The position numbers and the translations under genes are program-made. A stretch of 64,000 nucleotides of DNA from Escherichia phage MET-P1-301: the sequence record PV700625. One strand, written 5' to 3'. The notes below the pieces were generated by a model. It made no database searches and had not been told where the DNA came from. It saw nothing but the letters and a program-made list of their open reading frames with translations. Positions within the stretch are counted from its first letter, which is position 1. Every line of letters starts with the position of its first letter. Below are positions 1 through 12,146 of the stretch, in pieces.

Positions 1-980
1 GTTCCCTTACCATCCCTTTGCAAAATTTTAAAATATCCTTAACAATCTCTTAACAGTTCTCACATCTTCTTAACAACTCTTCAAAGGTCTTAACAGTTTC
101 TTAACAGAACTGACAAGGATGTAACAGTTTTCTAACAAGATTTGATAGGGCTTTACAGAATCTTAACAGATGACTAACAAGAGCTAACAAGTTAATTTTA
201 AAGAGTTATTTTGTTAAGATAATTAACAAGTTCCTAACAAGTGTTTAATCTTTTTAACAAACTATTAACATGGTCACTATCTCTTTCTTATCGTTCCCTT
301 TCTCTCTTAGTGATTCCTTAAACATACCTCTTAAAAGCTCTCTATAGCCCCTTATAAGCTCTTTTAAGCCTCTTCCTAGTAGTTACACCCCAACTATACA
401 GACACCTCTTTATAGAGCTTTACAGGAGCTTTTAAGGCTATGTCAAAGGTTCTTACAAGGCTTTTACGTGGTCTTAACAGAGATTTAACAAGGGGCTAAC
501 AAGTCTCTAACAAGCATAACTATGTAGGGTTTGTTAAGAAATTGTTAAGAAAATGTTAAGGGGCTAGCATTTACGTAACTTTTAAGCTATCTATCACGTA
601 ACTTTATAGCCTCTTTTATGTAACTTTGAAGTGACTTCATAGCCCCCTTTTAGTAGTTCACAAGAATACTAACGAGATGATAAAGCTTACACCCTTATAA
701 GATTCTTTTAAGGCTCTAGGAAGCTCTATAAAGGGCTTTTTAGAGTGGGTTAATATGATTGCTTAAGTTAGGTTGATAAGGCTGTTATAGAGCTTTATAG
801 AGCGTTTTAATGGTTGCCCTTCCCTTTCGGGTTATGGGCTTATATTTAAGTTGATTTGATAAGAGGTTATAGAGTAGACTATAGAGTTATTGCTTTTTAA
901 GGTACGAGATAGATTCTATCGAATTAGTGGGATAGCTTCTAGAAAGGAAAGGGAAAGGGATTGTATAAGGATTCGATAGA
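1..980. repeat. Non-coding region with phased arrays of short repeats; candidate origin / terminal / regulator-binding region
   Basis: No ORF of 60 aa or more. TTAACA[AG]/CTAACAAG occurs more than 15 times in 40-290 and again in 470-520, mostly at 11-12 bp spacing; inverted TGTTAAG x3 at 530-560; GTAACTTT x3 at 580-630; TATAGAG pairs at 780-890. Confidence 0.5.
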
Positions 981-1042: not shown

Positions 1043-1291
1043 TTAGTTGTACCCTTGTTTGCTGTAGTACAGGGAGACAATCAAATCACCCCAATAATGG
1101 TAATGATGTTCATCGTTTAACGCCTCTTTTACTGCATCTTTCCAGAAGTCATCAGTAGGGTTATAATCTGGGATAACTTGCTTGATAACTGTCTTCACTA
1201 ATGAAAAGCATTCATCAGTTCCACCAATATCAAATTTAACGTCCAGAGTGTAGCAGCCATAAGCATTAACAGTAGCGCGGATAGTAGCCAT
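1043..1291 (-). CDS. hypothetical early protein (82 aa)
   Basis: ORF preceded by family-A leader cassette and GGAGA Shine-Dalgarno. Confidence 0.5.
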   Translation of the reverse strand: MATIRATVNAYGCYTLDVKFDIGGTDECFSLVKTVIKQVIPDYNPTDDFWKDAVKEALNDEHHYHYWGDLIVSLYYSKQGYN

Positions 1292-1365
1292 TTTTGAATC
1301 TCCTAGTTTAAGGTATTTATCTAGTGGGAGGTTATTACCTCCCGTTGATTAGTAATTTACTGCAT
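1292..1365 (-). promoter_or_regulatory. Early-gene leader cassette, family A
   Basis: Conserved ~75 nt directly 5' of the ATG: GGGAGG/CCTCCC-type hairpin, then ACTAAATAAAGTCCTTAAACTAGGAGATTC-AAAATG. Confidence 0.55.
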
Positions 1366-1619
1366 GTTGGCGTATGTTGCAAGCCTTTTTCGTTGTATTT
1401 TGTAAGAATCTCACAAGATAAAACATCATATTTTTTAATCGCGTTACCTTTTTCGAGGTCAAAGAATCCGAACGCTTTACCGTCTTTGAATCCGACAACC
1501 TCGTAAGACTCTTTGATGATTTCACCATTGAACAAATCACTTTCGATACGATGGAATAGTGCTACATCCTCTTTGTCGGTTGCAATTTGTAAAAGTGTGG
1601 TCAGTTCGACGTGTTCCAT
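1335..1619 (-). CDS. hypothetical early protein (94 aa)
   Basis: ORF with family-A leader upstream; its C-terminus reads through the hairpin of the next cassette. Confidence 0.5.
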   Translation of the reverse strand: MEHVELTTLLQIATDKEDVALFHRIESDLFNGEIIKESYEVVGFKDGKAFGFFDLEKGNAIKKYDVLSCEILTKYNEKGLQHTPTCSKLLINGR

Positions 1620-1692
1620 TTTGAATCTCCAGTTTAGGATTTTATTTAGTGGGGAAGGTCATTCCCTCCCCGTTGATTGACAATTTACAGAT
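1620..1692 (-). promoter_or_regulatory. Early-gene leader cassette, family A
   Basis: GGGGAAGGtcattCCCTCCCC hairpin plus conserved SD-ATG context. Confidence 0.55.
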
Positions 1693-2215
1693 TTTTGATT
1701 GTCTCGTCAATATCTTTTTCAATATCTTTTAAAGTTTTTTCTAAGTTCTTGATATTGAAAGTTAAACCTTCACCGAGCGTTTTATAGTGACCATTAGGTC
1801 TATGGTCATAGAGTTCGATTTCTTCCACATCGGATAAGTTTACCATCTCACCATTTGCAGCATAGGCTATTGACACAGTATTTTCAGGTGCGTCGTAAAA
1901 CTTATTCAGTGACTTGATAGCACGTTCATAAGCCATTTTATAACCATTTAAAAGGTTTTTAACGTGATTGTGAACGTTTTTACAATCATCTAAGTAAAGA
2001 CCTAAAAACATCGGGAGAAGTTCCGCGACAGCTTGCATAAAGTGAGAGACTACAACGGTGGAAACATTACGACGATGGACGTAATAAGCCCCGTTTTCTG
2101 ATTTGGTAATGGTTGCAAAGTGTACACCATTGCAACGAAATTCATAGGTATCTTTAACAGGCTTAGACATTACAGCATTTGAACGAATGAAGTTGATAGC
2201 TTGAAATTTGTTCAT
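1685..2215 (-). CDS. hypothetical early protein (176 aa)
   Basis: Long ORF with family-A leader upstream. Confidence 0.55.
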   Translation of the reverse strand: MNKFQAINFIRSNAVMSKPVKDTYEFRCNGVHFATITKSENGAYYVHRRNVSTVVVSHFMQAVAELLPMFLGLYLDDCKNVHNHVKNLLNGYKMAYERAIKSLNKFYDAPENTVSIAYAANGEMVNLSDVEEIELYDHRPNGHYKTLGEGLTFNIKNLEKTLKDIEKDIDETIKNL

Positions 2216-2290
2216 TTTAGAATCTCCAGTTTAGGACTTTATTTAGTGGGAGGTTATTGCCTTCCCGTTGATTAGTAATTTACTTGTTTT
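2216..2290 (-). promoter_or_regulatory. Early-gene leader cassette, family A
   Basis: GGGAGGttattgCCTTCCC hairpin plus conserved SD context. Confidence 0.55.
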
Positions 2291-2433
2291 GATAGCTGAT
2301 TGCAAGCAATTTTTTAAGTTTATCTATAAAGAATCTTTTAAGTTAATCCCTTTTAGATAAACCCCTCGAACAAAGTTACCAATGTCAAGGGGAGTTGTCA
2401 ACACTTTTTTAAAAGTTTTTTGTAAGTTGTTGA

Positions 2434-2779
2434 TTAACTGATGAATATTTTTTCAGGTTTTACATAGCTGATACGCTGGCTTTTTAGCAGGTCATCCCAG
2501 ATTAGCGCGGCAATATGAGAATAGCCGGATTCACGTAAAATCTTCATTGTTTTACTTCTCGTTTCAAAACGGCTTGCGTAGTATTCACTGTTCAAGGTAG
2601 TTTTATTCCCTTCGTTATCTGTATGGATGATTTGCATTACCTGAAAGGGCTTACATCCTCGCCTTTGTTCCACTGCTCAAAGTATTTTAGGCACTGCATA
2701 GGCGACATCTTATCACTGACTTGAGTTGACCAAGATGAATCTTCTTTATTGGTAATTACAGTTACATAAGCCATTTTAG
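2434..2779 (-). CDS. hypothetical early protein, interrupted by an apparent frameshift near 2670
   Basis: ATG at 2779 sits directly behind a leader cassette; that 45-aa frame merges into the 79-aa ORF 2434-2673 after a one-base shift at an AAA run. Confidence 0.4.
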
Positions 2780-2853
2780 AATCTCCTAGTTTAAGGACTT
2801 TATTTAGTGGGGAAGGTCATTCCCTCCCCGTTGATTAGTAATTTACAGACTTT
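2780..2853 (-). promoter_or_regulatory. Early-gene leader cassette, family A
   Basis: GGGGAAGGtcattCCCTCCCC hairpin plus SD context, same as the copy at 1620. Confidence 0.55.
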
Positions 2854-2855
2854 TA

Positions 2856-3098
2856 TCAGGCTTGTCTAGTCTTTTCAATGATAATTTCATATTGACCATC
2901 GACGCTATCAAAATAAATGCCGTCGCTATCTTCTGTCTTAAAGTAACATTGTATATCATCACTGGCGGGATAGTCTTGTCTTGCTATCTGGCAAACTTGA
3001 ATAGCATTTTCTTTACTCCCTGTAAACTCCTCAAGCCCTTTAAAATCGCATGAATGACCGTTACAAATAGAAAGGATGAGATAAATGGTTGTCAACAT
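2856..3098 (-). CDS. hypothetical small Cys-containing protein (80 aa)
   Basis: ORF with hydrophobic N-terminus; no leader cassette, sits 68 nt downstream of the previous gene. Confidence 0.4.
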   Translation of the reverse strand: MLTTIYLILSICNGHSCDFKGLEEFTGSKENAIQVCQIARQDYPASDDIQCYFKTEDSDGIYFDSVDGQYEIIIEKTRQA

Positions 3099-3166
3099 GA
3101 TTTAAGCCTTCTAAATGGCCCTGTACGGGCCTTAAGTTGGAAGTTGGTGTCTTTGTACTGATTAGC

Positions 3167-3724
3167 CTAAAAGTCTTTTAAATTGCGTTCTGTGAGGTTT
3201 GCCGTGATTTTATCCAGTAGGTCACAATACACAGAGCAATCCCCGCTATTCTGCACAATTTTCGCCATACTTAACAAATCTTCGTCAATATCTCCTAAAT
3301 TACGGTTAGTTGTATCAGGTACAAAGAAAGGCGCATATATTGCACTAAATTTCGTCGAGTGAAGGCCAACAATCCAATCCTTATCAAAGTATCCGGTAAA
3401 ACTGGCGATATCACTCATGTTGTCACAAGAATAATCGTCTTCTAGCTCTTCCTCTGGGATATCCATTTCAATGACAATCACGTCCTGCGTTTCCATTTGG
3501 AAAGCTGCCGTAATAAGTCCAGACTCTAAAGCGTTTTGAATGCAGCGTTCACGGATGTAAGAATCTTCCTCATCTTCCAGACATTCCGTTTTGATAACCT
3601 TGTTCATTGGGTAAACGTAGAAACAATCGTCCATGTAGGAGCAGTTCCAGATTCCTTCCGGCTTGTCGCCACCATTCAGCAGGTTTACAAAGTTTTTGAG
3701 GGTAGTCCCGTGATAGCATTTCAT
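3167..3724 (-). CDS. hypothetical early protein (185 aa), acidic
   Basis: ORF preceded by family-B leader cassette. Confidence 0.5.
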   Translation of the reverse strand: MKCYHGTTLKNFVNLLNGGDKPEGIWNCSYMDDCFYVYPMNKVIKTECLEDEEDSYIRERCIQNALESGLITAAFQMETQDVIVIEMDIPEEELEDDYSCDNMSDIASFTGYFDKDWIVGLHSTKFSAIYAPFFVPDTTNRNLGDIDEDLLSMAKIVQNSGDCSVYCDLLDKITANLTERNLKDF

Positions 3725-3810
3725 TTTTGAATCTCCAGTTTAGGATTTAGTGGTAAAGCTCTTTATCTGGGGCTTACTTTATCGAACTATAAGCCCCTTG
3801 TAAAGTACTT
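3725..3810 (-). promoter_or_regulatory. Early-gene leader cassette, family B
   Basis: Perfect hairpin GGGGCTTA-13 nt-TAAGCCCC, then AGATAAAGAGCTTTACCACTAAATCCTAAACTGGAGATTCAAAAATG. Confidence 0.55.
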
Positions 3811-4012
3811 TAACGATTATTTTTGACAACTTTTAAAACTGCAAGATAACCTAAGCAATAAGAATCACCGAAGAGAGTTCTACCCATGAAAGAATCCTCT
3901 TTGATATCCTTTGCAGTGACAGTTTTTTCTACGCCGTGGGAAAGGACTACATCCCCAACTTTGATGTCTTTGATGTGTGTTGTTTCAATGGTTAAGCCGT
4001 TAATATTAGCCA
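3810..4012 (-). CDS. hypothetical early protein (start refined to the ATG at 4012, 67 aa)
   Basis: The conserved leader/SD places the start at 4012; the longer track ORF to 4058 would read through the leader cassette. Confidence 0.45.
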
Positions 4013-4088
4013 TTTTAGAATCTCCTAGTTTAAGGATTTTACTTAGTGGGAAGGTCATTCCCTCCCCGTTGATGAGTAATTTAATCTA
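4013..4088 (-). promoter_or_regulatory. Early-gene leader cassette, family A
   Basis: GGGAAGGtcattCCCTCCCC hairpin plus SD context. Confidence 0.55.
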
Positions 4089-4163
4089 TCTAGAAATCAG
4101 TGTCAACAGTTTTTTAGAGTTCTGCGTAAATTGCGTCACAAATATCACGAAAATCATGATTTG

Positions 4164-4516
4164 TTAAATTACGTTGCAACCATGTTGCAAAAAGTCAGCA
4201 ATTGCAAAATTTGCGTCATACTCGACAGATAGCCACACTTTCACGGCAAAACGAAACATTTTTAAATCAAGCTCTTTATTCATTACCTTTGATTTGCCTA
4301 ACATGTCAGCCATTTCATATTGTGCACCGTCTAGCGTGATACCTGCTGCAACGTCAGCCAATGAGTTTTTACACTTTCAACGTCTAAGATAACACTTTGA
4401 ATCTTCCCGATAATATTGTGCAATGTCTCATCAGGTGCTGATGATGTAATAACATTAATCCGGTTAACGGTTAAACGTGCTTTTAAGATTGATAACTCAC
4501 GGTTATTAATAGTCAT
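4164..4516 (-). CDS. hypothetical early protein, two overlapping ORFs probably joined by a frameshift near 4340
   Basis: Track ORFs 4331-4516 and 4164-4361 overlap in different frames; family-B leader sits upstream of 4516. Confidence 0.35.
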
Positions 4517-4600
4517 TTTAGAATCTCCAATTTAGGATTTAGTGGTAAAGCTCTTTATCTGGGGCTTACTTTATCGAACTATAAGCCCCTTGTAAAGTAC
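4517..4600 (-). promoter_or_regulatory. Early-gene leader cassette, family B
   Basis: GGGGCTTA...TAAGCCCC hairpin plus SD context. Confidence 0.55.
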
Positions 4601-4629
4601 TTTATACTAAATGCAGCTTTTACCTTTTA

Positions 4630-4872
4630 CTATGATGTAACTTGCTGCGCTATTGCCGCATACATCTTGATAAATTCTGCGCAAACGGCCTTCGTAGTGG
4701 ACTTTCCAGCTAGTTGGAATCTTTTTCCCGTATCCGGTAGCAGTTTTTGGAGTCCTGCTACTTGCCAATCTAAGATATGTTGCTCAGCTTGTAAATCTTC
4801 AAAGTGCATCACACCATCAACATAGTGACGTAGAGTGACATTTAAAGTACGACCGTTGTTAGTAGTATACAT
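4630..4872 (-). CDS. hypothetical early protein (80 aa)
   Basis: ORF preceded only by the SD part of the cassette (catttttgaatctcctagtttaagg). Confidence 0.45.
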   Translation of the reverse strand: MYTTNNGRTLNVTLRHYVDGVMHFEDLQAEQHILDWQVAGLQKLLPDTGKRFQLAGKSTTKAVCAEFIKMYAAIAQQVTS

Positions 4873-4895
4873 TTTTGAATCTCCTAGTTTAAGGC

Positions 4896-5054
4896 TTATT
4901 TTGACAGTTCACTAATTAAGACATCAAAGATTATATCATTATCTGCTACAGTTGCAACACCAGTGATATAATCAATTTCTAAGATAACAACAACTTTCGT
5001 ACATAAACCGTCATCTATATCATTCCAGACAACTTTATCACCTGCACAAAACAT
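4896..5054 (-). CDS. hypothetical small protein (52 aa, MFCAGDKVVWNDIDDG...)
   Basis: Hand-translated ORF below the 60-aa track cutoff, directly behind a family-A leader at 5055-5132. Confidence 0.4.
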   Translation of the reverse strand: MFCAGDKVVWNDIDDGLCTKVVVILEIDYITGVATVADNDIIFDVLISELSK

Positions 5055-5132
5055 TTTTTGAGTCTCCTAGTTTAAGGACTTTATTTAGTAGGGAGGTTAT
5101 TGCCTCCCCGTTGATGTGTAATTTAATCTATC
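5055..5132 (-). promoter_or_regulatory. Early-gene leader cassette, family A
   Basis: GGGAGGttattgCCTCCCC hairpin plus SD context. Confidence 0.55.
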
Positions 5133-5144
5133 TAAAAATCAGTG

Positions 5145-5477
5145 TCAACAGTTTTGTTTTCGTTTGCTCAATTCTTGAACAATTACAGCGTAGTAGTCTT
5201 TTAAGTCACTGATATTTAAAGCATTTATCAGAGAATTATAATCATCGACTAACTGGAAATCATCCTTGAAGATGTCACTTATCTGATAGGTTTTCGCTTT
5301 GAATCTGAAGCTCATCTCTAGCCGCTTTATTTGCTCATCACTGAGACGCCCTAGAAAGCTCTCTACAAGGTTATTGCTAACCTGCTGTGTGATTGCCTTA
5401 TTTGCTAGATTATAGGCTTTATATGCCTTATATAGCGCGAAAATGGCAATGATTGCAGTGATACCAGTCATTAACAT
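5145..5477 (-). CDS. hypothetical membrane protein (110 aa)
   Basis: N-terminal hydrophobic helix (GITAIIAIFALY). Confidence 0.45.
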   Translation of the reverse strand: MLMTGITAIIAIFALYKAYKAYNLANKAITQQVSNNLVESFLGRLSDEQIKRLEMSFRFKAKTYQISDIFKDDFQLVDDYNSLINALNISDLKDYYAVIVQELSKRKQNC

Positions 5478-5550
5478 GGTGTTTCCTCTTTACGTGATAC
5501 TTTGCCATTTACAGTTATCTCATAAGATTCTAATAAATCGCTTTTAGACT

Positions 5551-5766
5551 TTACAGGGCTTTTAAAAGTATCATCATAAACATTGACTTGCAATACAGGT
5601 TTTTATACTCCCTGCAACTATTCCATAAGCAAATCACTACACGACGGCCTTTGATTTTTCCGTGTAACCATTCCATAACATCATGACTATTCCTTGATGT
5701 TTCAATAAAATCAATTTTGTTGAGTAACTTGCTTAGATTTTCACGGATTTTATTTGATAATTTCAT
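5551..5766 (-). CDS. hypothetical early protein
   Basis: ORF behind a family-B-like leader; C-terminus may be frameshifted. Confidence 0.35.
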   Translation of the reverse strand: MKLSNKIRENLSKLLNKIDFIETSRNSHDVMEWLHGKIKGRRVVICLWNSCREYKNLYCKSMFMMILLKAL

Positions 5767-5850
5767 TTTTGAATCTCCAGTTTAGGATTTAGTGGTAAAG
5801 CTCTTTATCTGGGGCTATCTTAACAGCTTGATAACCCCATGTAAAGAAAT
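5767..5850 (-). promoter_or_regulatory. Early-gene leader cassette, family B variant
   Basis: GGGGCTATC...GATAACCCCA hairpin variant plus the conserved downstream block. Confidence 0.5.
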
Positions 5851-5854
5851 CTAT

Positions 5855-6367
5855 TTAGTTCTTAAAGATATTCATCACTGAATCTTTTAATGATTCCAAG
5901 CGTTCTAACACTTCAGATTCTGCGTCTGCGTTGTTCACTTCCTCTTTTAACCTATCCTCTAAATCATCGCCGTCACTATAGCACCAGTCGAAAGCATAAC
6001 CAATATAAAAGCTATCTAAAACCGTGTTGCCATTTGCATCTACAACTTTCGCGGCAATGTTATACTCTGAAGCCTCTAAATCTCTTTCTAGTTCTTTTTG
6101 TAAGCTTGTATAAGCCTCTTTTGATGGATTTTCCCGGCCTTGTTTTGCGTAGTCACTTGAAAGCTGTTTAAGGCTGTAATGTAAAGGGATTGCATATTTA
6201 AATTCATTATGCTGGCAGTTAGGATTTTTAACAGTCACACCGCCTTGATGGTCATCTGTAAATTCCCAATTATCAAGATTATGGCTTGCTTCAAAGCAAT
6301 TAACAGCTTCATAGATAATAGTGAATTTTTCTTTTACAACTTCAAAGGTAGCGTCTACAGTTTTCAT
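5855..6367 (-). CDS. hypothetical early protein (170 aa)
   Basis: ORF with family-B leader upstream. Confidence 0.5.
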   Translation of the reverse strand: MKTVDATFEVVKEKFTIIYEAVNCFEASHNLDNWEFTDDHQGGVTVKNPNCQHNEFKYAIPLHYSLKQLSSDYAKQGRENPSKEAYTSLQKELERDLEASEYNIAAKVVDANGNTVLDSFYIGYAFDWCYSDGDDLEDRLKEEVNNADAESEVLERLESLKDSVMNIFKN

Positions 6368-6450
6368 TTTTGAATCTCCAGTTTAGGATTGAGTAGTAAG
6401 TTCTTTATCTGGGGCTTAAGATATCAGCTTTTAAGCCCCTGTAAAGTACT
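6368..6450 (-). promoter_or_regulatory. Early-gene leader cassette, family B
   Basis: GGGGCTTAagatatcagcttTTAAGCCCC hairpin plus conserved block. Confidence 0.55.
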
Positions 6451-6453
6451 TTA

Positions 6454-6744
6454 TCAGTTAATTTTCAGTTTTGCATAGCCTCTCATTGTACGAATGGGGG
6501 ATGTTAAGGCTACGCGTCTAATATATGCCTTTTTCGTGTATACATTTGTCTTCCCGATAGTGTTTACACATGTAAAAAGGTTTATTGGTGAATTTTTTAA
6601 TTTCAACTGTCTATCAGTCTTCACGCCCCATCTTACATCAGATTGTTTTCCGTTGTCAACCACTTTCCCGCCTAACTTTTTCGCCATGATGCGAGCGTCA
6701 TCACGAGTTTTTGCAGGAACTACAACGTTTTTGATAATAGCCAT
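6454..6744 (-). CDS. hypothetical early protein (96 aa), basic
   Basis: ORF with family-B leader upstream. Confidence 0.5.
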   Translation of the reverse strand: MAIIKNVVVPAKTRDDARIMAKKLGGKVVDNGKQSDVRWGVKTDRQLKLKNSPINLFTCVNTIGKTNVYTKKAYIRRVALTSPIRTMRGYAKLKIN

Positions 6745-6830
6745 TTTTGAATCTCCAATTTAGGATTGAGTAGTAAAGCTCTTTATCTGGGGCTTACTTT
6801 ATCGAACTATAAGCCCCTTGTAAAGTACTT
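6745..6830 (-). promoter_or_regulatory. Early-gene leader cassette, family B
   Basis: Near-identical to the copy at 3725-3810. Confidence 0.55.
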
Positions 6831-6832
6831 TA

Positions 6833-7213
6833 TCAGTTAATTTTGAATATTGTCACATAACCATCACTACCAATTATTTGAGACGCTCCAGCTTTCTCCA
6901 CTGAATAGCCCATATTTTCAAGATGGTAAACAGCATCATCATAACCATATGCGCCACCTTGATAACGTCTCTTATTGCAGCTTATCAGGTTTTTACCACG
7001 TCCTGCCAGTGCATTCAGTACGGCTTTTTCACTTGATAACGTACCGTCTATCATTGTTGCCGTGTAATGGTTGATTTTATTCCCGTTGATATCATACTTG
7101 AAATTAAACGAGTGAACAATAATAACGTTACCTTTAAATTTTTCATCAAGTGCCTTCTCCAGTGCGTTGCGGAAGTTGTCTTTGTTGATGAATTTCGGTG
7201 CACGATAAGCCAT
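6833..7213 (-). CDS. hypothetical early protein (126 aa)
   Basis: ORF with family-B leader upstream. Confidence 0.5.
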   Translation of the reverse strand: MAYRAPKFINKDNFRNALEKALDEKFKGNVIIVHSFNFKYDINGNKINHYTATMIDGTLSSEKAVLNALAGRGKNLISCNKRRYQGGAYGYDDAVYHLENMGYSVEKAGASQIIGSDGYVTIFKIN

Positions 7214-7298
7214 TTTTGAATCTCCTAGTTTAAGGTTAATGTAGTAAAGCTCTTTATCTGGGGCTTAAGATATCAGCTTTTAAGCCCCTGTAAAGTAC
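7214..7298 (-). promoter_or_regulatory. Early-gene leader cassette, family B
   Basis: GGGGCTTAagatatcagcttTTAAGCCCC hairpin plus conserved block. Confidence 0.55.
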
Positions 7299-7301
7299 TT
7301 T

Positions 7302-7508
7302 TTATTTATCGTAGTAGTAAATTGCTGTCTGTCTTGTAAACTTCTTAGTGTTTCTTGTAAGGTAGCAATTAGAATTAATAGCCGTTTCTACATAGTTGCA
7401 ATAGTCGGCTTCTGATATTCTGGACCATACGCCACAGATTTTCATGTAAAAACGTTTTGCCTTTGTGTTAACGTTAGTTGTAACCATTAATTCACGATAG
7501 TAAGTCAT
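7302..7508 (-). CDS. hypothetical early protein (68 aa), first gene of the leftward early array
   Basis: ORF behind an SD-only cassette remnant (7509-7560). Confidence 0.45.
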   Translation of the reverse strand: MTYYRELMVTTNVNTKAKRFYMKICGVWSRISEADYCNYVETAINSNCYLTRNTKKFTRQTAIYYYDK

Positions 7509-7744
7509 TTTTGGATTCTCCAGTTTAGGAAGTGGGCTGGCTTGCCCGTCTGATGCAAATATTAGATAACCATACTCAAAGAGTCAATAGGAATTTTAAA
7601 AATATTTTTGCAAAAACTGTAATGAAACGGGCGCACGCGACTACCACAAAACAGAACTACAATCAAGAATTATTTTTCAATCCGCTACAAATTTTTCTGT
7701 TGACTTTTATTTCCAGATGTGGTAGCCTTGTGAGAAATGGCGAC

Positions 7745-7945
7745 ATTCCCACCTGCACCCACCTACCTGCACAATTCTAAAATGATTTTTCTTGCCCGAC
7801 CTGAGCGGGGTCTGCACGTTTTGAAAATGAAAAAGCTCTTTGGAGATTACCTGCACAATTTGAAAATGAATTTTCTCTTTGGAGTTCAAAATTTTCTCTA
7901 CAGATTTCTCTACAGAACTCTACCTGCACAATCCTAAAATAAAAA
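7745..7945. repeat. Three ~25-bp direct repeats (ACCTGCACAAT-NNN-AAAATGA) in a 500-bp non-coding gap; candidate early promoter / operator cluster
   Basis: Copies near 7757, 7848 and 7921; CTCTTTGGAG also duplicated. The gap separates the small-ORF array from the 8015-37323 block. Confidence 0.45.
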
Positions 7946-8014
7946 GCCCTCCTTACCTGAAAAATTTAACAGATAAGAAAGGCTTAGTCTATTGTGAATA
8001 TCCTATAGAGTTTC

Positions 8015-8800
8015 TTAGTTCTTTGCGTCTAAGAAGGTAACTTCCGGTGAAGAGAAAATTTCCTCAACATTCTCATCAGTTCTTGCATAGATATATGTGT
8101 CTGCATCACTGCCAAATGTTACTGCAATTCTGTGATTGCTCTTCGACAGGTGGGTAACTAGAGCGTTACTTAGAGACATCTTTTCAACCGGAGGGTTACT
8201 TTGATGTATCTTGCCTTTTCTTCGTCTGAAGAGGGTAACTGCATCATCAGTGAACGTTACTACACCTGCAAAGTATTCTGGTTCACAGTAGTTCTTCCAA
8301 CCTGAGCGTAACTTGTGGTACATCTCCCCTTCGTAGACATACAGATAGACATCTACATTCTTCATCACCTGATTAATGATAACGGTGACGGCTTGAGGGT
8401 CAAGTCCACCGATGCCTGCACCAATCATAGGTAAACCGACTTTCTTCAACTGATTAACTTCACAGTATCTGTTAAGCTGTTTCAAAGATGATTCTAAAGC
8501 ACTGTATCGGGCATCTTTACCAGTCTTAAGCTGAGTGTAAAGGTTAGCTATACGGCCTTGTTTTAAACGTGCTACAGAGAAATTACCTAGTAAGTTCTCA
8601 CAGGGCTTGTGGCCTATGCCACCTGCATACAGATAAACTTCTGTATCAGTCTCATATGCTTTTGGGTAAAGTTTAGAAATCTTGTCAGCGATACCTGCAC
8701 CCATTAAATTCATACAGTTGCAACCGTGACCAATGACGTCAAACTTACCTTTATCAAATGCGGCAAAGATATCACCATTGATGATTTTTACAATACCCAT
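8015..8800 (-). CDS. Macro-domain protein (TARG1/Poa1p-like ADP-ribose-processing domain) with an unassigned C-terminal extension
   Basis: N-terminal half carries GDIF...DVIGHGCNCMNLMGAGIA...LPMIGAGIGGLDP, matching the TARG1-type macrodomain pattern as I recall it. Confidence 0.6.
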   Translation of the reverse strand: MGIVKIINGDIFAAFDKGKFDVIGHGCNCMNLMGAGIADKISKLYPKAYETDTEVYLYAGGIGHKPCENLLGNFSVARLKQGRIANLYTQLKTGKDARYSALESSLKQLNRYCEVNQLKKVGLPMIGAGIGGLDPQAVTVIINQVMKNVDVYLYVYEGEMYHKLRSGWKNYCEPEYFAGVVTFTDDAVTLFRRRKGKIHQSNPPVEKMSLSNALVTHLSKSNHRIAVTFGSDADTYIYARTDENVEEIFSSPEVTFLDAKN

Positions 8801-10320: not shown

Positions 10321-10347
10321 AAATGAAAAAGGCTCCCGAAGGAGCCT
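10321..10347 (-). terminator. Intrinsic terminator (UUCG-tetraloop hairpin plus U-run on the minus strand)
   Basis: AGGCTCCcgaaGGAGCCT; minus-strand reading gives hairpin then TTTTTCATTT. Confidence 0.6.
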
Positions 10348-12055: not shown

Positions 12056-12118
12056 TGGTTCTCCTGTTTAGTTCATCGTGACAACAATTATACAGCACTC
12101 TGCACAAAATACAAATAA

Positions 12119-12146
12119 AAAGGCCGCCGAAGCAGCCTTTTAAGAA
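12119..12146 (-). terminator. Possible weak terminator hairpin after rIIB
   Basis: Imperfect GC hairpin AGGCCGCCgaaGCAGCCT flanked by A/T runs. Confidence 0.3.

Follow-up and report, generated by a model that had tools for sequence, protein, structure and literature searches.

A non-coding gap among the early genes of Escherichia phage MET-P1-301 carries an array of four short direct repeats, which we predict to be four sites for one asymmetric, sequence-specific DNA-binding protein. The gap (506 bp, positions 7509–8014) lies between the open reading frames (ORFs) 7302–7508 and 8015–8800, both on the minus strand, within a 64,000-nucleotide stretch of DNA (sequence record PV700625) that was analyzed in full and is referred to here as the window. 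Based on comparison of the window with related phages, we assign a probability of roughly 0.7 to the gap carrying a DNA-level cis element of this kind. That the replication origin of the Felix O1-like phages has the array as its iteron-like core is a putative and more tentative assignment, with a probability near 0.3. Many Felixounavirus genomes (Felix O1-like myoviruses, subfamily Ounavirinae) match the region at 93–97% identity, and minus-strand genes occupy the window from about 600 to 36,600.

The original prediction for this region had described a non-coding gap of this size with three direct repeats, the first at ~7757, whose sequence ended in AAAATGA. Both the gap and the repeats are real; however, there are four copies rather than three, the first starts at 7765, and the third copy ends in AAAATAA. 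The sequence ACCTGCACAAT starts at 7765, 7849 and 7922 (spacings of 84 and 73), and TACCTGCACAAT has exactly three occurrences in the 64 kb, at 7764, 7848 and 7921, all of them inside the gap. The fourth copy, CTGCACGTTTTGAAAATGA at 7812–7830, had been overlooked and is present in all relatives. Read in the sense orientation, which is that of the minus strand and the flanking genes, the motif is TCATTTY-N6-GTGCA within a unit of ~38 bp. The four units, together with a duplication that lies between two of them, are as follows.

7921–7961, minus strand: repeat unit 1, core TTATTTTAGGATTGTGCA at 7942–7925, overlapping the terminator tail
7848–7888, minus strand: repeat unit 2, core TCATTTTCAAATTGTGCA at 7869–7852, nearly invariant in the conservation footprint
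7809–7849, minus strand: repeat unit 3, core TCATTTTCAAAACGTGCA at 7830–7813
7764–7804, minus strand: repeat unit 4, core TCATTTTAGAATTGTGCA at 7785–7768
7893–7916, no strand assigned: 12-bp tandem duplication (TTTCTCTACAGA twice), in the extra ~35 bp between units 1 and 2

The units are arranged head-to-tail in one orientation, and in each the starts of the two boxes, TCATTTY and GTGCA, are 13 bp apart. Each unit also has a conserved G at position -6 and a tract of either AAAA or TTTT at positions -4 to -1. The units are asymmetric, with no dyad symmetry, and no large inverted repeats were found. The region of the 12-bp duplication is a feature of Felix-like phages and is absent from the Erwinia phages.

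Allowing up to one mismatch, TCATTTY-N6-GTGCA matched five times in the 64 kb against an expectation of 0.89, a number reached in none of 100 shuffles, and four of the five matches fall within 175 bp. The remaining ~25 kb of a sister genome (the genome being ~86 kb) contained no further copy of the motif; across the window and the rest of that genome the array is a single locus. To follow the array through related phages, the homologous gap was gathered from more than 40 phages and contigs of the genera Felixounavirus, Suspvirus, Mooglevirus and Kolesnikvirus, the last comprising phages of Erwinia and Hafnia. Nearly all had four copies in the same orientation, with three in one sub-lineage. 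The units are contiguous in Kolesnikvirus, with a spacing of 37/37/39 bp; the corresponding values are 73/39/45 for the Felix-like phages and 75/41/45 for Mooglevirus.

Across the 84 distinct instances of the motif, the first box was invariant at A2 to T5 and the second at G13, T14, G15 and A17; T0 and C16 had one exception each. The six bases between the boxes and the DNA between units were variable. The flank that follows GTGCA was clade-specific: the Felix, Susp and Moogle groups have GGTA, and Kolesnikvirus and the metagenomic phage L059 described below have TAGG or TAAG (GTGCAGGTA versus GTGCATAGG). In a conservation footprint of 34 distinct Felix/Susp/Moogle sequences, the array and an adjacent block at 7709–7662 were conserved at least as well as the flanking coding DNA. 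No other non-coding sequence of the early region is as strongly constrained as the four-unit array.

The array is also kept in the distant L059 (IMGVR_UViG_3300045988_063805, 88 kb), which was found by a pattern scan of IMG/VR for the tandem motif. L059 has a gene order in common with the window at 30–44% protein identity (macro protein 37%, PNK 30%), and it carries five copies of the motif directly after its macro gene, at the syntenic place. Comparison with GenBank phages revealed no nucleotide-level relative of L059 beyond short, weak matches to tk.4-type macro genes. At 600–1170 of L059 the five copies are directly followed by a cluster of TTAACA-type repeats that resembles the Felix terminal repeat. 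Apart from L059 and Ounavirinae-type phages, the IMG/VR scan returned one match only, a two-copy match in L051 that is probably coincidental. In the metagenome scans the array was found only in Ounavirinae-type phages, the remaining matches being generic tandem repeats, and a pattern scan of 185,579 bacterial and archaeal genomes identified no enterobacterial genome with the array; in both kinds of scan the array was confined to this lineage of phages. In one contig, L025 (IMGVR_UViG_3300045988_004180), the phage sequence gives way in mid-array, following GGTCGGG and beyond locus position ~3507, to unrelated DNA that is G+C-rich and apparently bacterial; this contig is likely a chimeric assembly.

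The general idea in the original prediction that the repeats are sites for a protein is the one most favored by these data. We consider an asymmetric binder the best fit because two invariant boxes about one helical turn apart are combined with a free spacer, an A/T-tract of either strand, a fixed orientation and a fixed copy number. The alternation of AAAA and TTTT ahead of the first box would fit recognition of DNA shape better than of RNA sequence. The binder may be encoded by the phage or may be a conserved enterobacterial host protein. A host protein is a real possibility because the boxes are so extremely conserved among phages whose hosts include Escherichia, Salmonella, Citrobacter, Shigella, Erwinia and Hafnia. 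The clade-specific flank, instead, hints at a phage protein that co-evolves with its sites. Compared by eye, none of the host consensus sequences that were considered fits (CRP, IHF, Fis, MarA-type, sigma-54/E/32/S, Tus, boxA and type I restriction sites), and these comparisons are leads, not tests. The DnaA box TTATNCACA was the sole host consensus that was scanned formally.

The surroundings of the array bear on what the bound sites might do, and the elements on either side of it, from the upstream operon to the next gene, are listed here.

8015–8800, minus strand: macro-domain ("Tk.4-like phosphatase") gene, 261 aa (Pfam Macro 1e-07; phrog_335)
7934–7985, minus strand: intrinsic terminator that closes the upstream operon, with a 16-bp stem (hairpin 7985–7944) and then UUUUUAUUUU
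7710–7758, no strand assigned: hypervariable tract with two alleles, from the gap alignment and conservation footprint
7662–7709, no strand assigned: invariant A/T-rich block AAAAGTCAACAGAAAAATTTGTAGCGGATTGAAAAATAATTCTTGATT, 48 bp, 27% GC, ~100% conserved in 34 distinct sequences of three genera
7559–7587, minus strand: early promoter P1, TTGACT-17-TAATAT with an A/T-rich upstream region
7302–7508, minus strand: 68-aa gene (phrog_5293), lineage-specific and not the neighbor of the array in all genera

The macro gene is the constant left-hand neighbor of the array in every lineage, being syntenic in four genera and in L059 (37% identity), while the downstream genes are not conserved across lineages. 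The array begins directly after a strong terminator, which has a stable hairpin followed by a U-run on the transcribed strand (-21.7 kcal/mol, z = -4.9, with none of 200 shuffles as stable) and is carried in the annotation of phages Barry and ASO1B. The 3' stem and the U-tract of this terminator overlap unit 1, and the 3' stem is invariant in the 34 distinct sequences. On the other side of the array, ~180–220 bp downstream of it, is P1, followed by a hairpin in the 5' untranslated region (5'-UTR; GGGC..GCCC, 7547–7534), the ribosome-binding site (RBS) GGAG (7521–7518) and the ATG at 7508. P1 belongs to the same module family as other early promoters, such as TTGACA-17-TAAATT at 5148, 4106 and 1710, and the ASO1B annotation has a promoter at the equivalent place.

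Between the array and P1 are the hypervariable tract and the invariant block. The window allele of the tract, GGTGGGTGCAGGTGGGAATGTCGCC..., includes an extra partial ACCTGCAC at 7751–7758; in most relatives the tract is C-rich on the sense strand, with G-runs on the plus strand that are potentially quadruplex-forming. The invariant block contains two direct repeats of the form GAAAAAT-N7/8-GATTG and, on the plus strand, an invariant TTGACT (7701–7706) located 17 bp before an invariant TA. It could possibly represent a weak antisense or second promoter, or be part of the same cis element as the array. The GC content falls to 22–27% at 7560–7619 and 7640–7699, compared to ~38% in the genome, and the first of these stretches doubles as the upstream region of P1.

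If the array is the core of a replication origin, the bound sites would act together with the adjacent invariant A/T-rich block (7662–7709), and the flanking promoter or promoters would help in DNA opening and in the priming of synthesis. The context is origin-like: a unique locus, four or more direct repeats, an early-region non-coding gap of unusual size and, next to the repeats, an invariant block of 27% GC and a strong promoter. Several observations weigh against an origin. None of the ten neighboring genes was recognized as an initiator or as having a DNA-binding domain in Pfam and PHROGs searches. The spacing of the sites is not in whole helical turns (73/39/45 bp being 6.95/3.7/4.3 turns), and in the Erwinia phages, where 37/37/39 bp corresponds to 3.5–3.7 turns, the sites are also not helically phased as classical iterons are. 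GC skew tracked gene orientation and showed no inflection at the gap, and the A/T-rich stretches are just moderately below the genome-average GC. Iterons normally co-diverge with the phage initiator, and 100% identity of the boxes at 30–45% protein identity would be unusual for iterons and fits a host factor or another function better.

The main rival of the origin, and one that we rank close to it, is a regulatory or boundary array, in which the four sites, directly behind the terminator, would be occupied by a phage early protein or a host factor. In one variant the bound sites would be a roadblock or insulator between the upstream early operon (rIIA to the macro gene) and the last ~7-kb block of small early genes; in another they would exert distant control of P1 or of a weaker nearby promoter. 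We regard this rival as possible rather than probable. In every case the array comes after the macro-gene operon has ended and before the next early promoter, its unit 1 extends over the tail of the terminator, and an asymmetric bipartite site would suit a sequence-specific regulator. A boundary role would also speak to the passage of transcription beyond many terminators, and its timing, which are unexplained for Felix O1 (Whichard 2010, PMC3185647). However, the sites are 180–220 bp from a recognizable promoter rather than overlapping it, they lack dyad symmetry, no regulator gene was recognized among the ten neighboring genes, and a single target locus in 86 kb would be unusual for a regulator.

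The position of the array within the early region differs from that originally proposed, which was at the head of the early genes and upstream of the first early ORF. The early block on the same strand continues upstream of the gap through PseT, rIIB and rIIA, and the ORF at 7508 heads just the last sub-block of ~7 kb, which runs to the terminal repeat. The repeats had also been proposed to be tandem early promoters or operators for a repressor that shuts off early transcription, and neither proposal was borne out. On the sense strand no unit had a -35/-10 pair when hexamers 16–18 bp apart were sought, and the true early promoter of the gap is P1. For repressor operators, which are not supported in the form proposed, the sites would be expected at the promoters they control; the nearest promoter, P1, is ~180 bp away and is not overlapped by the sites, the other early promoters are without the motif, and the sites have no dyad symmetry.

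Tandem promoters could in principle also be antisense and sigma-70-like, with a -10 element of the form nRAAAT on the plus strand. Every unit has TAAAAT or GAAAAT on that strand, and two units of the Erwinia phage phiEa21-4, read as TTGCCA-17-TAAAAT/GAAAAT, have scores of 10/12 and 9/12. Against this, the best -35 on the plus strand reached at most 3/6 in almost every copy and lineage, the exceptions being two Erwinia-phage copies and one copy of the three-copy variant, which had 4/6. The base equivalent to -11 is G in 22 of the 84 distinct instances, and the non-critical positions -10 to -8 are 100% invariant. In addition, sigma-70 does not read the promoter spacer, and that is where the invariant TGCAC would lie; the motif is also found in no other promoter of the genome. 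Promoter activity of the units, sense or antisense, appears improbable to us.

We consider it similarly unlikely that the element works at the level of RNA, for example as linear protein-binding sites on read-through sense RNA, with a role in antitermination or processing, or through an antisense RNA that starts from the plus-strand TTGACT (7701–7706). The strict orientation of the units relative to transcription would fit such a role, as would their position, with a terminator immediately before them and, after them, a gene block that contains at least six further terminators, and on the plus strand the invariant TTGACT is 17 bp ahead of an invariant TA. However, that plus-strand -10 is poor (TAGCCT or TAAGAG), the array is not contained in P1 transcripts, and the AAAA/TTTT alternation beside the first box is hard to explain in RNA. 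Neither conserved structure nor covariation was detected on either strand: alifold gave -11.5 and -4.2 kcal/mol with about zero covariation, and single-sequence folds of the array had z of about 0 on both strands. An Rfam scan of 7000–8500 returned only chance-level matches and no family at gathering score.

A small protein-coding gene was likewise tried as an explanation and rejected; the Felix-like phages have a reading frame that spans the array, but the Erwinia phages and L059 have no such frame on either strand. ORFs for hypothetical proteins have been annotated over the array, at 7737–7937 (+) of the window and at the equivalent places in KT001916, MK562505, JN225449 and JF461087. These small ORFs are probably spurious calls.

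The remaining explanations concern the ends of the genome. The 608-bp direct terminal repeat of the Felixounavirus UAB_Phi87 was sequenced experimentally (Bardina et al. 2016, PMC4837284, Fig. S1), and it aligns to positions 3–557 of the window at 82% identity. By this alignment, the start of the window is a physical genome end. Positions 1–560, which correspond to the direct terminal repeat, are dense in short repeats (CTTAACA, TAACAAG and TTGTTAAG) with periods of ~10–11 and 31 bp. A distance of 7.2–7.4 kb separates the array from the terminal repeat, its position being ~9% from the physical end, and the distance is similar in one Erwinia-type phage.

A terminal-repeat boundary or packaging (pac/cos) site at the array is the least likely of the explanations that we weighed, and is extremely improbable. 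In its favor are three independent assemblies that stop within 2 nt of each other just past unit 4, and one Erwinia-phage record with identical 1232-bp ends that contain the array. For Felixounavirus, however, a packaging or terminal-repeat site at the gap is refuted by the published end sequencing of UAB_Phi87, whose experimentally determined 608-bp repeat is a different sequence, at window positions 3–557. The SpeI fragment of UAB_Phi87 is 6568 bp, versus 4322 + 2819 - 608 = 6533, which places the ends ~7 kb from the gap, and the assembly breaks lie in a tract of C/G-runs and are probably technical.

The three assemblies are the IMG/VR contigs L022 and L023 and the record ON210138.1 (L041). 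All have the C-rich allele of the hypervariable tract and end within 2 nt (...CTCTTACTCC), and one of them runs into a Nextera adapter. The breaks in the C-rich allele are probably a sequencing or assembly artefact, the alternative being a nick or a structural block. The Erwinia-phage record is OR125561.1 (L039, L040; Erwinia phage BoyaciRG1), in which the first and last 1232 bp are identical, array included. These ends look like the overlap of a circular assembly and not a true terminal repeat, because the repeat starts inside the macro gene.

A stop in DNA entry, like the injection stop signal of T5, was also considered. In T5 the stop is at 7.9% of the genome, in a conserved, repeat-rich non-coding region with DnaA boxes; that region is >1 kb, has nested inverted repeats, palindromes and eight paired DnaA boxes, and is inside a 10-kb terminal repeat (Davison, bioRxiv doi 10.1101/866236). 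By analogy, the array would end a first-transferred left segment of ~7.7 kb (9%) that holds the last early block. A membrane-associated host factor (DnaA-like, to judge by the Erwinia-phage copies) or a phage protein on the four sites would then act as a checkpoint, holding the DNA until the small genes for host takeover had been expressed. The start of the window at a physical end, the distance of 7.2–7.4 kb from the terminal repeat and the similar distance in the Erwinia-type phage are consistent with this proposal, and each of the four Erwinia-phage copies is a 7/8 match to the DnaA box. However, no copy in the window reaches 7/8 on that box, and instead of paired DnaA boxes in nested inverted repeats or palindromes, the Erwinia phage has four single 7/8 boxes. 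There is also no evidence of two-step injection in Felix O1-like phages, nor of this end entering first; in L059 the array directly abuts the TTAACA-type cluster with no genes between; and the anatomy is far simpler than that of the T5 signal. An entry checkpoint, or simply an entry stop, is in our estimation very unlikely.

Other repeated elements of the early region were observed in the window. Positions 1200–7300 are made of repeated intergenic modules, which comprise a common RBS block, TCCTAAACTGGAGATTCAAAAATG (8 copies), a terminator-type hairpin, AAGCTCTTTATCTGGGGCTTA...TAAGCCCC (6 copies), and a promoter with a 5'-UTR hairpin, TTGACA-17-TAAATT...CATCAACGGGGAGG..CCTCCC (5–6 copies). At 12087–12141(-) one degenerate copy of the array motif, TTATTTGTATTTTGTGCA (12118–12101), comes after the rIIB terminator, with a perfect TATAAT (12092–12087, minus strand) 8 nt beyond it. 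This degenerate copy may be a coincidence or a relic. The tail of a terminator at 10347–10330 is also TTTTTCATTTC. A tRNA scan of the window identified none.

No account of the array was found in the genome paper of Felix O1, in the papers on wV8, UAB_Phi87, comparative Felixounavirus genomics and Bas63 essentiality, or by full-text searches, and the literature searched contained no description of a replication origin for the Felix O1-like group. The repeats listed in the Felix O1 paper are exact ones of at least 24 bp only, and the paper notes that temporal regulation and the passage of terminators are unknown (PMC3185647). The array is genuine, deeply conserved and experimentally tractable, and it offers a small, precise target for experiments. 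Should it turn out to be the origin or else a master boundary element, it would find use in engineering these phages, for example in plasmid-borne origin interference or in the choice of safe insertion sites. It would likewise help annotation, as several records call spurious genes across it. Felix O1 is a classical Salmonella typing phage, and its relatives are widely used in biocontrol and in phage-therapy collections. If the array were instead a checkpoint in DNA entry, first transfer would be limited to the ~7.7-kb (9%) segment of the left end, as in T5.

In kind, the array resembles known iteron or operator arrays. The origin of lambda has four sites for the O protein beside an A/T-rich region, and the origins of lytic lactococcal phages lie in non-coding gaps of the early region with several direct repeats. 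The locus described here is similar to these iteron-type origins in being unique, in having about four direct repeats in the same orientation with an adjacent A/T-rich conserved block, and in its place among early genes and beside a promoter. It differs from them in that its units are ~38 bp and not spaced by whole turns, its sites are asymmetric and bipartite rather than dyads, the ten genes around it include no recognized initiator, and its boxes are identical across a much deeper divergence than iterons usually show.

With the T5 stop region the array has in common that it is conserved, repeat-rich non-coding DNA 8–9% from the left physical end and is better conserved than neighboring genes, with DnaA-box-like sequences in the Erwinia-phage copies only. 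Unlike the T5 region, it is a simple direct repeat of four units outside a terminal repeat of ~0.6 kb, in a group for which two-step transfer is not known. The OR and OL operators of lambda and the p4 sites of phi29, which lie between early and late promoters, overlap or abut the promoters they control and are dyad-symmetric. The array is like them in having three or four close sites for one protein, here a predicted one, in an intergenic control region, and unlike them in being asymmetric, in running in one direction and in its distance of ~180 bp from a promoter. Finally, the early promoters A1–A3 of T7, which are canonical sigma-70 promoters, likewise form a series of spaced repeats near the point where an early gene block begins, not far from a genome end, whereas the units of the array fail the -35/-10 tests on both strands.

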